This document shows, one piece after another, positions 16,275 to 19,860 of a stretch of 64,000 nt of DNA (within the stretch, counting starts at the first letter, position 1; each line of letters starts with the position of its first letter). Source of the DNA: Escherichia phage WPEC5. The translations under genes and the position numbers were made by a program. The stretch lies in sequence record PV654397.1. One strand, written 5' to 3'. The notes beneath the pieces are model-generated. The model was not told the origin of the DNA. It saw nothing but the letters and a program-made list of their open reading frames with translations, and did not search any database.

Positions 16275-17774
16275 TTATAAAATTACTTCACCAAAAATGC
16301 CATTGATATCACGTTCAATGATGTATTCACCTTCATGTTCTTCTAAGAACTTTTTAATGGCTTCATTAACTTTAGGACGATGCATGTTGTTGAATGTTTC
16401 AGTACATCCGTCACCTTTTTCATAATAACCACTTTTGTGATGTGGATTACCGCAGAACGCAATTGTATGTGTAATACGTTCTAACTCAGCAGCAAGATGC
16501 CCCCCATTGTCTTTGTTAAAGAAAATGGAAATTTCATTTTTCCAAAATACTTCAACTTGATATATTTTTTTAAAAGAACTATTAATGCGTTTCAAACGCT
16601 TATCGTTATCACCTGCAATACCGGCTTTATCTGATTCATTATATACATCGTTATGTATATAATAATAAGCTGTTTTGTCTTTTTTAAAACCACTTGGTGT
16701 TCTGTTCGGATGTCCTTGTCCTCGAAGGAATGCATTAGGTGTAATCTGAAACTCACCGAAATCAGGATCAATTATAGTTACATCTAAAAAAACAACAGAA
16801 CAATTTATTAAAGACGCGAAAGAAAAAAGAACTGATATTGATTTTGAATATAGTAAAGTTCTTTTTAAGTGGTAGTGGGCATCCTATCCGTGGTGGTTCA
16901 TCTAAAAAAACAACAGAACAATTTATTAAAGACGCGAAAGAAAAAAGAACTGATATTGATTTTGAATATAGTAAAGGTAAAGCCAATTATATTAATGCAT
17001 ATACAAAAGTAACTATAATTGATCCTGATTTCGGTGAGTTTCAGATTACACCTAATGCATTCCTTCGAGGACAAGGAGAACTCACCATATTCAGGATCTA
17101 TAACAGTTACTTTTGTTTTGTTATTAACATAGTTAACTTTACTATATTCAAAATCAATATCAGTTCTTTTTTCTTTCGCGTCTTTAATAAATTGTTCTGT
17201 TGTTTTTTTAGTTCGGATGTCCTTGTCCTCGAAGGAATGCATTAGGTGTAATCTGAAACTCACCGAAATCAGGATCAATTATAGTTACTTTTGTATTTGG
17301 CTTTACTATAATCATAATTAATATCAGTTCTTTTTTCCTTTCCTTCAGTGACGAATTGCTCTGTGGTTTTCGATTGTAATTTAATCTGGTCTTCAATTGC
17401 TCGTTTCGGATGTCCTTGTCCTCGAAGGAATGCATTAGGTGTAATCTGAAACTCACCGAAATCAGGATCAATTATAGTTACTTGGCTTTACTATAATCAT
17501 AATTAATATCAGTTCTTTTTTCCTTTCCTTCAGTGACGAATTGCTCTGTGGTTTTCGAACGTAATTTAATATTTTTTTGAATTGCTCGTTTCGGATGTCC
17601 TTGTCCTCGAAGGAATGCACTAGGTGTAATCTGAAACTCACCGAAATCAGGATCAATTATAGTTACTTTTGTATGTGCACTAACATAATCAACTTTACTA
17701 TAATCATAATTAATATCAGTTCTTTTTTCCTTTCCTTCAGCGACAAATTGTTCTGTGGTTTTTTTAACAGACAT
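16275..17774 (-). pseudogene. tandem-repeat protein gene, frame interrupted (about 55-aa modules KKTTEQFxxxGKEKRTDIxYDYSK...TKVTIIDPDFGEFQITPNAFLRGQGHP, plus C-terminal domain)
   Basis: successive minus-strand ORF fragments in different frames (17478..17774, 17208..17471, 16898..17278, 16275..16595) all encode the same module; about 170-bp DNA repeats. Confidence 0.5.
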
Positions 17775-18003
17775 TACTTAAAACCCCTTTCCAGTACTGA
17801 ACCCGTCCAGCACCATTAATCTTAGCTTGAATCTTATCTTTTTCGACAAGACCTTCTTTGAAATCAATGGAAGTATTATCGCACTGAATTACATCTAAGT
17901 CAAGTACTTCTTGTGTACTTAATGAAGTATTGTCTGCAATTTGTTGTAAAGTAATGATATCAGTACCGAAGAATTCTGCTAATCGTATAAAAGATAGTTT
18001 CAT
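17764..18003 (-). CDS. hypothetical protein (79 aa)
   Basis: minus-strand ORF directly downstream of promoter cassette. Confidence 0.5.
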   Translation of the reverse strand: MKLSFIRLAEFFGTDIITLQQIADNTSLSTQEVLDLDVIQCDNTSIDFKEGLVEKDKIQAKINGAGRVQYWKGVLSNVC

Positions 18004-18029
18004 GTATTACCTCTTGAGTTGATGAAATA

Positions 18030-18062
18030 ATTATAGCAAAAAGGGCTGACCGAAGTCAACCC
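18030..18062 (-). promoter_or_regulatory. terminator-promoter cassette
   Basis: perfect palindrome GGGTTGACTTCGGTCAGCCC + T-run + TATAAT. Confidence 0.6.
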
Positions 18063-18072
18063 TTTTTATGTG

Positions 18073-19860
18073 CTATTGTTTTACACCACCCCACTTTTCA
18101 TAGATCGATAAAATTTTTTCTAAATTAGTGATTGTAGTTGTTTCTGTATATCCATCTGGCATTTCTTTTTTAGACAAGATACCATTACCAAATAGTCTCT
18201 TGCATTCTTTTTCTGCTTCCTTACAATTTATCACAGTTGGGAAACTATATACACAAATTAGTTTTACTTTAAATAATGATTTTTTATTTTGTTGCTTAAC
18301 ACGTTTTCCTTTTTGTTTTTCAATACCATATTTTAAAGCAATAGGTAAATCGTTGTCTGAAATAATGTTAACATATGCATATTGCTGGGAATAACCTGCA
18401 CGCAATGGATGCCCACTACCTCTTAAAAAATCATCTGGTATAACACTGAACTCACCATATTCAGGATCTATAACAGTTACTTTTGTTTTGTTATTAACAT
18501 AGTTAACTTTACTATATTCAAAATAACTTTACTATATTCAAAATCAATATCAGTTCTTTTTTCTTTCGCGTCTTTAATAAATTGTTCTGTTGTTTTTTTA
18601 GCTTTACCTCCCCTTCTAGGATGCCCACAGCCACGTAAAAAACTATTAGGTGTAATATCGAACTCACCATATTCAGGATCTATAACAGTTACTTTTGTTT
18701 TGTTATTAACATAGTTAACTTTACTATATTCAAAATTCGCGTCTTTAATAAATTGTTCTGTTGTTTTTTTAGATGAACCACCACGGATAGGATGCCCACT
18801 ACCACTTAAAAAGCTTTTCGGTGTAATATCAAACTCACCAAATTCAGGATCAATAATAGTTACTTTTGTTTTAGTATTAATATAATTAACTTTGCTATAA
18901 TCAAAATCAATGTCAGATCTCTTTTCTTTTGCTTCTTTAATAAATTGTTCTGTTGTTTTTGTTTTTTTTACAATATCGTTATTAATAGATCTAGAAGGAT
19001 GCCCACTACCACTTAAAAAGTTGCTTGGTGTAACACTGAACTCACCATATTCAGGATCTATAATAGTTACTTTTGTTCTATAATTAACGTACTCCGCTTT
19101 ACTATATTCAAAATCAATATCAGTTCTTTTTTCTTTCGCGTCTTTAATAAATTGTTCTGTTGTTTTTTTAGATAGGTGTAATCTGAAACTCACCGAAATC
19201 AGGATCAATTATAGTTACTTTTGTATATGCATTAATATAATTGGCTTTACTATAATCATAATTAATATCAGTTCTTTTTTCCTTTCCTTCAGTGACGAAT
19301 TGCTCTGTGGTTTTCGATCCTTGTCCTCGAAGGAATGCATTAGGTGTAATCTGAAACTCACCGAAATCAGGATCAATTATAGTTACTTTTGTATGTGCAT
19401 TAATATAATTGGCTTTACTATAATCATAATTAATATCAGTTCTTTTTTCCTTTCCTTCAGTGACGAATTGTTCTGTGGTTTTCGATTGTGCTTGCATACT
19501 GTTTTTAATAGCTCGCATTGGATGTCCACCACCAAACAAAAAATCCGAAGGTGTAATCTGAAACTCACCGAAATCAGGATCAATTATAGTTACTTTTGTA
19601 TATGCATTAATATAATTGGCTTTACTCGCGTCTTTAATAAATTGTTCTGTTGTTTTTTTAGATGAACCACCACGGATAGGATGCCCACTACCACTTAAAA
19701 AGTGATTGGGTGTAATATCAAACTCACCAAATTCAGGATCAATAATAGTTACTTTTGTAAAAGAATTAATATAATTAACTTTACTATAATCAAAATCAAT
19801 GTCAGTTCTTTTTTCTTTTGCGTCTTTAATGAATTGTTCAGTTGTTTTTTTAGCTGGCAT
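18073..19860 (-). pseudogene. tandem-repeat protein gene, frame interrupted (about 10 modules + distinct C-terminal domain)
   Basis: ORFs 19168..19860, 18477..19208 and 18073..18405 are consecutive frames of one repeat-rich gene; a 20-bp direct duplication (AACTTTACTATATTCAAAAT x2, about 18515-18555) coincides with one frame break. Confidence 0.5.

Follow-up and report, generated by a model that had tools for sequence, protein, structure and literature searches.

The DNA analyzed here, referred to as the window, is a stretch of 64,000 nucleotides (nt) from Escherichia phage WPEC5 (sequence record PV654397.1), an Asteriusvirus-like jumbo coliphage, and our subject is the repeat-rich locus at positions 16,275 to 19,860 within it. 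An original prediction had described this locus as two minus-strand genes built of tandem modules and separated by one small gene, and this layout was confirmed by a module profile and by a reading of the frames. We call the two genes A and B. The gene between them, of 79 amino acids (aa), overlaps the start of gene B with its 3' end. The locus lies between a denV-type gene and a gene for an AAA-type ATPase, and every gene discussed is on the minus strand (Table 1). The flanks of the interval 16150-19950 were found to be collinear with Escherichia phage Turkey3 on both sides at 98-99% identity, and the collinearity extends to other Asteriusvirus-type jumbo coliphages, among them PBECO4, 121Q, fEgEco12 and SHEFM2K. 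The G+C content of the window is about 34%.

A total of twelve breakpoints were found in the region, five in gene A (two of which shift the frame) and seven in gene B. A greedy mosaic analysis of 16275-19860 gave about 16 pieces, each 99-100% identical to the genes of Turkey3 or of a second related phage, EC22.5-2. The same analysis placed all twelve junctions out of register with the repeats, with a microhomology of 0-2 nt and with the same breakpoints re-used; the original prediction had instead put the breaks at the repeat junctions. Examples of the joined sequences are ACAATTTATTAAAGACGCGA followed by GTAAAGCCAATTATATTAAT and ATCCTGAATATGGTGAGTTC followed by TCCTTGTCCTCGAAGGAATG. Outside the joins, the identity of gene A to its intact Turkey3 counterpart is 99.5-100%; three changes set the two apart, a 490-base-pair (bp) insertion (19663-19174) made of gene-B-type modules, a 21-bp deletion and a 20-bp duplication. 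The duplication had been predicted near 18515-18555 and was found at 18505-18544 as an exact tandem copy. A block of modules with profile matches on the plus strand, absent from the original prediction, was observed within gene B.

The twelve junctions share one signature. At each of them an exact repeat of 76-78 nt ends on the left and another starts on the right (24 of 24 flanks in this range), and among 3150 positions such two-sided flanks of about 77 nt occur only at the junctions, to within 1 nt. All exact repeats of at least 60 nt in the window lie within 16704-19702, and nearly all of these are about 77-79 nt long and abut a junction. When a graph was built from the window's own 77-mers after removal of those spanning a junction, the remaining 77-mers formed a closed de Bruijn graph with dead ends only at the ends of the region, comprising 13 sense-strand unitigs and four branch points per strand. 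The interval 16150-19950 is a blunt tiling of these 13 unitigs, each used exactly once and three inverted (rc, reverse complement), in the printed order U17, U5, U11, U1, U8, U23, U10, U14, U16, rc(U3), rc(U18), rc(U25), U19. The window contains every 77-mer of the Turkey3 gene save those around three single-nucleotide polymorphisms, and it contains 670 of the 670 from the 3' part of gene B in EC22.5-2.

The oddities of the printed sequence can be read off this tiling. U8 and U23 have terminal 77-mers that truly overlap by 20 nt inside U16, and the abutting of these two unitigs produced the 20-bp duplication. The apparent deletions of 14, 21, 22 and 33 nt come from the opposite fault, the skipping of a short connecting edge. 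The U5 stretch, now printed inside gene A, is 100% identical over 308 nt to EC22.5-2 DNA directly adjoining the gene B C-terminal domain, while U18 and U25, inverted within gene B, belong to gene A. The frame breaks, the truncated modules, a 56-aa period, the 20-bp duplication and the inverted block are all products of the joins.

With reads of about 150 nt, 77 is the largest k that the assembler SPAdes uses by default, and scaffolding with a gap set to k would leave two edges directly adjacent, with no Ns between them. An assembler working at k=77 would have failed on the tandem modules and written each of the 13 edges once, with blunt joins, a wrong order and three edges reversed. The identity of the assembler is a conjecture whereas the k=77 signature is not. 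In two independent short-read assemblies, EC22.5-2 and ECO103 4-12-1, the contigs break inside both arrays, and the locus therefore defeats short-read assembly. Both assemblies (records OR845198.1 and OR845138.1 for EC22.5-2, OR844650/OR844668 for ECO103 4-12-1) have the same two-gene layout; in EC22.5-2 the main 352-kilobase contig starts and stops in the arrays and a contig of 1,994 nt bridges the two genes. Because the contigs end inside the arrays, the module numbers of these phages cannot be counted. The contig ends of EC22.5-2 overlap by 47 nt and not by 77, which is uninformative on k.

Re-threading the unitigs gave intact genes. The sole minimal path using every unitig (U17-U18-U1-U18-U25-U16-U8-U16-U23-U11-U3-U14-U10-U11-U5-U14-U19) spells 3,048 nt, compared with 3,801 nt as printed, an excess of 753 nt. 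In it, gene A is open over 432 aa with five modules and two amino acid differences from the Turkey3 protein XMR01473.1, and gene B is open over 411 aa with four modules and a GIY-YIG domain. U5 was placed last in gene B on the model of the contiguous EC22.5-2 sequence; the alternative order of U3 and U5 is equally in frame because the two differ by 207 nt. The disruption noted in the original prediction is true of the printed sequence, whose own k-mers nevertheless spell intact genes. One intact open reading frame (ORF) per gene was recovered in silico, and the repeat is a member of a family already described (see below), which together is the outcome that the original prediction had named as speaking against it. 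The 230-aa and 79-aa ORFs of the window have no exact match on record in public assemblies.

The module profile, made from five clean modules, matched only 16698-19851 in the window, with expectation values (E) down to 1e-42. The tandem array had been correctly predicted but its unit length of 55 aa had not, since the true modules are 63-70 aa long (189-210 nt). Tandem Repeats Finder reported periods of 168, 171, 185 and 207 bp at the locus, those of 168 bp (56 aa) and 185 bp being due to the artefactual joins. Matches to two endonuclease families, phrog_559 ('HNH endonuclease') and phrog_681 ('endonuclease'), were found for the array and for both C-terminal domains. A protein search gave more than 3,700 homologues with tandem module arrays, most of them carrying Pfam DUF723 and DUF4379, as in the multi-module DUF723/DUF4379 protein P0002 (E 1e-172). 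Up to nine full-length modules were counted per homologue, and related phages have 3-7 modules. Homology of the modules to the CapR/DUF723 (PF05265)/DUF4379 (PF14311) zinc-finger DNA-binding repeat is supported by these sequence comparisons. The loose resemblance to nuclease-associated DNA-binding repeats that had been suggested in the original prediction is borne out by this relationship, the repeat being that of the T5orf172 homing endonucleases (PMC10448857). Pfam matches on the printed ORFs to Peptidase_C58 (1e-8), Muted, SLATT_fungal, EF-hand_12 and others were rejected; these matches span only about 20-45 profile positions, are summed over the repeats and represent repeat-summation noise.

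Column by column, a window module is 37-59% identical to zinc-bearing modules, and in every window module the zinc-ligand columns (C-x2-H/C ... C-x2-C) are occupied by D, F/Y, H and R. None of the four zinc ligands is kept in any window module in this alignment to zinc-bearing relatives. Among the top 120 matches, a sample that the query itself biases, 64 of the 369 non-redundant modules are zinc-free. That every ligand is lost, judged from the alignment, appears mildly unusual and is the sole unusual point, and the trait is widespread among database neighbors. Three zinc-free relatives (P0001, P0003 and P0004) matched no Pfam family at E up to 0.01, and precomputed annotation lists PF05265 for all three. 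An intermediate form of the module, VHGDLYDY...IIDPxYGEFWQxPxxHLxGxGNPxR, was observed in P0127 and in many other modules; both cysteine pairs are gone from it and the histidines of the zinc form are kept. Such forms suggest, from their sequences, a stepwise loss of the metal site.

A model of the single module, based on 62 aligned sequences, has a predicted local distance difference test score (pLDDT) of 82.6 and consists of one helix, a beta-hairpin and a short helix. No informative solved relative of the module was found by sequence or fold search. The few hypervariable positions of the module (26, 28-31, 45, 47, 49-50, 53 and 55) map to three parts of the model: its loop, second strand and short helix. 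One might imagine the zinc-free module as a metal-independent DNA-binding repeat and, if each module read a few base pairs through its hypervariable positions, the arrays as a modular, re-assortable recognition code for phage nucleases, a proposal that we hold to be improbable.

The two C-terminal domains were predicted to be distinct, and their identity is indeed only about 21%. They are not unrelated, however, as both match the same part of phrog_681 and have the motif series YxYI, KxGI, R..N, E and DGxTET in common; the gene A domain also aligns to the family profile of the gene B domain (hhalign E 1.4e-4). One relative, P0018, matches T5orf172 (PF10544) at exactly the cut-off of 20.0 bits. 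In an alignment of eight sequences of the gene B family, Y18, G31, R39, N44, E78 and E105 are invariant and include candidates for the catalytic-type residues of the superfamily (Tyr in strand 1, Arg, Glu and Asn). The gene B domain has the alpha/beta fold of the GIY-YIG superfamily. A full HMMER scan of 1.84 billion proteins gave eight cluster representatives for the gene B domain (a word-indexed search gave one match), and because there are only eight matches among 1.84 billion representatives the domain forms a small subfamily. The eight domains are attached to varied N-terminal arrays, with the CapR homology domain of Pfam among them.

A different N-terminal repeat of about 70-90 aa with a recurring HPER.LP motif was observed in the 'homing endonuclease' of SHEFM2K (L001 2776-4200), in P0123 and in P0126. 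Carriers of this repeat are other occupants of the slot described next and other carriers of the gene-B-type nuclease domain, which suggests a second, uncharacterized family of DNA-binding repeats paired with the same nuclease.

The slot between the AAA-ATPase gene and the denV gene holds different endonuclease genes in SHEFM2K, PBECO4, Turkey3 and EC22.5-2, with the small 79-aa gene directly upstream of whichever endonuclease gene fills it. Such replacement polymorphism at a fixed slot, by which homing genes are recognized, was observed within flanks that are 98-99% identical to Turkey3. The small gene itself is conserved at about 95% or more, and it always stands directly upstream of the variable endonuclease gene and overlaps the start of that gene. 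The homing target site may lie in or beside it.

Taken together, we consider it very probable that a misassembly at k=77 hides two intact genes of the free-standing homing-endonuclease type, which belong to the T5orf172 branch of the GIY-YIG superfamily. Several results weigh against this. The misassembly was deduced from the contig alone, and the true copy number of the cyclic unitigs, hence the module count, could be above that of the minimal path. An intact gene B was not found in public records, and neither reconstructed protein was found in a collection of 15 billion proteins. The single module and the gene B domain each matched no Pfam family at E up to 10; the gene A domain reached MUG113 (PF13455) at E 0.004 with 18.2 bits, below the cut-off of 22.3, and was itself placed by sequence.

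Among the alternatives, the best survivor is that a mixed stock with differing module numbers tangled the graph, so that a real polymorphism is hidden. This is compatible with a misassembly, and changes of repeat number by recombination are to be expected (PMC10448857), as the range of 3-7 modules in related phages would also allow. We nevertheless regard it as unlikely, since the branches of the graph are those that a single haplotype with repeated modules needs and no mixture is required.

A far less probable reading takes the printed arrangement as real, the genes having decayed to pseudogenes through recombination between repeats, which is how the homing cycle usually ends. Degeneration is common among homing endonuclease genes, and the printed sequence contains many stops. 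Recombination within and between repeat-bearing T5orf172 genes is also documented (PMC10448857). The junctions that repeat recombination yields, however, are in register or mediated by homology, unlike all twelve found here, and the exact 77-nt repeats that bound both sides of each junction are without a biological explanation. Twelve rearrangements would moreover have occurred with essentially no point divergence from the intact relatives, and each graph edge is present exactly once.

Still more doubtful is template switching in recombination-dependent replication, similar to microhomology-mediated break-induced replication, in which one event would have scrambled the pieces. Segments of 80-145 nt in both orientations, tiny microhomologies, local clustering and the lack of point mutations would all suit such an event. 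It gives no account of breakpoints that are exactly 77 nt apart in reference coordinates or of pieces that equal the k=77 unitigs, each used once. Real recombination or template switching had been our first reading of the junctions and was dropped once the 77-nt flank signature emerged.

Repeat-mediated phase variation or programmed frameshifting as an on/off switch is the least probable reading. In its favor, the C-terminal domain of gene A is brought back into the starting frame by the +1 and +2 shifts, and an exact 20-bp tandem duplication is present. Against it, the locus shows neither a simple-sequence tract nor an in-register change of unit number, the overlap of two 77-mers joined blunt accounts fully for the duplication, and the inverted block in gene B is beyond any frameshift bypass. 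Phase variation and decay, both offered in the original prediction, are not supported, in view of the out-of-register joins, the k=77 signature and the intact genes spelled by the k-mers. Its further suggestion of an assembly collapse was right in naming an assembly artefact and wrong in the kind, as the edges were mis-joined and scrambled and the locus is too long.

Returning to two intact homing-endonuclease-type genes, we infer nuclease activity, DNA binding and homing from the fold, homology and synteny observed for genes A and B. The N-terminal array of five (gene A) or four (gene B) independently folding modules would bind an extended DNA target, with the variable module positions contributing to target specificity. 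The C-terminal GIY-YIG-type domain would then cut this target in a relative without the gene that infects the same cell, and recombinational repair would copy the gene into the cut allele.

Each gene of the re-threaded locus is a separate transcription unit behind the same cassette, in which a stem of the form GGGTTGAC-UUCG-GTCAGCCC holds the -35 element TTGACT and is followed by a U-run and TATAAT. Of all promoter matches in the region, those of the three cassettes at the locus score highest (11/12 with TG). A simple terminator scan did not list their hairpins, whereas folding shows them to be stable (-17 to -19.5 kcal/mol, z-scores of -4.6 to -6.2). Composite promoter-terminator 'PeSL' motifs are described as mediating modular shuffling in T4-type phages (PMC2839356 and PMC4122927). 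The window cassettes look like these motifs by analogy, and as they bracket each endonuclease gene they would provide homology for the swapping of gene cassettes. The cassette of about 45 nt (GGGTTGAC-TTCG-GTCAGCCC in the DNA) was observed in at least ten copies between genes in the window, on the minus strand.

Further small ORFs were observed near the locus. A 71-aa ORF at 19929-20144 (minus strand) has no family match, and only a version of 46 aa is annotated in Turkey3; in PBECO4, SHEFM2K and EC22.5-2 an unrelated 120-aa gene stands in its place, a swap that is a further sign of a variable region. A 45-aa ORF next to the denV gene (20602-20739, minus strand) ends in ...CSNHHRMVHSGRLCLIERKKG, which is also the C-terminus of a longer frame at the same place in EC22.5-2 with HH and CSNHH motifs. 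It looks like the remnant of a third endonuclease gene, of the HNH type; a Pfam search with the 45-aa ORF gave no match.

Table 1. Features of the repeat locus and its neighborhood, in window positions.
Feature	Position	Strand	Remark
Gene A as printed	19860 to 18073	minus	three-frame reading; 5 artefactual joins; predicted true gene 432 aa
Gene A C-terminal domain, T5orf172/MUG113-like (GIY-YIG superfamily) putative nuclease	18073-18393	minus	phrog_681 E 1e-27
Gene A joins	19626/19625, 19318/19317, 19173/19172, 18736/18735, 18524/18523	minus	
Unitigs U5 + U11, penultimate/last modules of gene B placed inside gene A	19174-19624	minus	
Exact 20-bp tandem duplication	18504-18544	minus	Tandem Repeats Finder; blunt join of U8 and U23
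79-aa gene between genes A and B	17764-18003	minus	phrog_34150
Gene B as printed	17774 to 16275	minus	7 artefactual joins; predicted true gene 411 aa, 4 modules
Gene B C-terminal domain, GIY-YIG nuclease fold	16275-16712	minus	
Gene B joins	17482/17481, 17297/17296, 17211/17210, 17078/17077, 16977/16976, 16861/16860, 16781/16780	minus	
Inverted block, rc(U3), rc(U18), rc(U25)	16783-17076	plus	module profile matches on plus strand
PeSL-like cassette upstream of gene A	19903-19939	minus	hairpin -16.7 kcal/mol, z -4.9; promoter 11/12 with TG
PeSL-like cassette between gene A and the small gene	18030-18066	minus	-19.5 kcal/mol, z -6.2
PeSL-like cassette between gene B and the AAA-ATPase gene	16235-16271	minus	
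Cassette hairpin starts	16267, 18062, 19935, 20658, 24954, 25636, 27217, 27997, 31591, 40069	minus	
Pyrimidine-dimer glycosylase gene, denV type	20160-20597	minus	Pfam Pyr_excise E 5.5e-15
AAA-type ATPase gene, 256 aa	15436-16206	minus	

The locus illustrates that false pseudogenes, phase variation and inversions can be created by a k-mer assembler where genes are rich in repeats. It also illustrates that the error can be diagnosed from the contig alone, in which exact repeats of length k flank every breakpoint and open genes emerge once its own k-mers are re-threaded. The record needs correction before genes A and B are counted as decayed. The two genes would be new members of a class already published, the T5orf172 homing endonucleases whose DNA-binding modules are repeated, and the sizeable zinc-free subgroup to which they belong would offer a simple test case of the dependence of DNA binding on the zinc site.

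A search of the literature on Asteriusvirus homing endonucleases gave nothing specific. The architecture of a T5orf172/GIY-YIG-type domain following repeated CapR/DUF723/DUF4379 DNA-binding domains is a published one (Barth, Dunham & Seed 2023, PMC10448857). Like genes A and B, the genes of that study have the nuclease-type domain at the C-terminus behind a 'beads on a string' array of N-terminal modules, their repeats are similar at the nucleotide level, and they occupy variable intergenic positions in lytic phages. They differ from genes A and B in that the modules of the latter have D, F/Y, H and R at the ligand positions and in that the Pfam models T5orf172 and MUG113 score below cut-off on the C-terminal domains.

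The closest relative of gene A is Turkey3 XMR01473.1 ('DUF4379 domain-containing protein', 432 aa), which is the same gene at the same locus, with five perfect modules and the C-terminal domain of gene A. The Turkey3 copy is printed intact, and two other genes take the place of gene B downstream of the small gene. For gene B, the C-terminal domains of the PBECO4 'endonuclease' gp306 (379 aa) and of 121Q gp221 are 68% and 58% identical, respectively, and both genes occupy the same slot after the same small gene. Their N-terminus is different, with one zinc-bearing module (C..H...C..C) as compared to the four zinc-free modules of gene B.

Outside the nucleases, the DNA-binding domain of CapR from the Vibrio cholerae PLE satellite is related to the window modules and is the sole member of the group for which sequence-specific DNA binding was demonstrated experimentally (PMC8096241). 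In a four-cysteine mutant of CapR, capsid repression was relieved, an electrophoretic mobility shift assay being used to confirm that DNA binding was lost (PMC8096241). CapR has no nuclease domain and acts as a repressor on its own, and the window modules are without its cysteines. Finally, genes A and B differ from I-TevI, other GIY-YIG homing endonucleases and Slx1 in having the nuclease at the C-terminus and a binding array of 4-5 modules, whereas I-TevI has an N-terminal nuclease with a single zinc finger and a helix-turn-helix.

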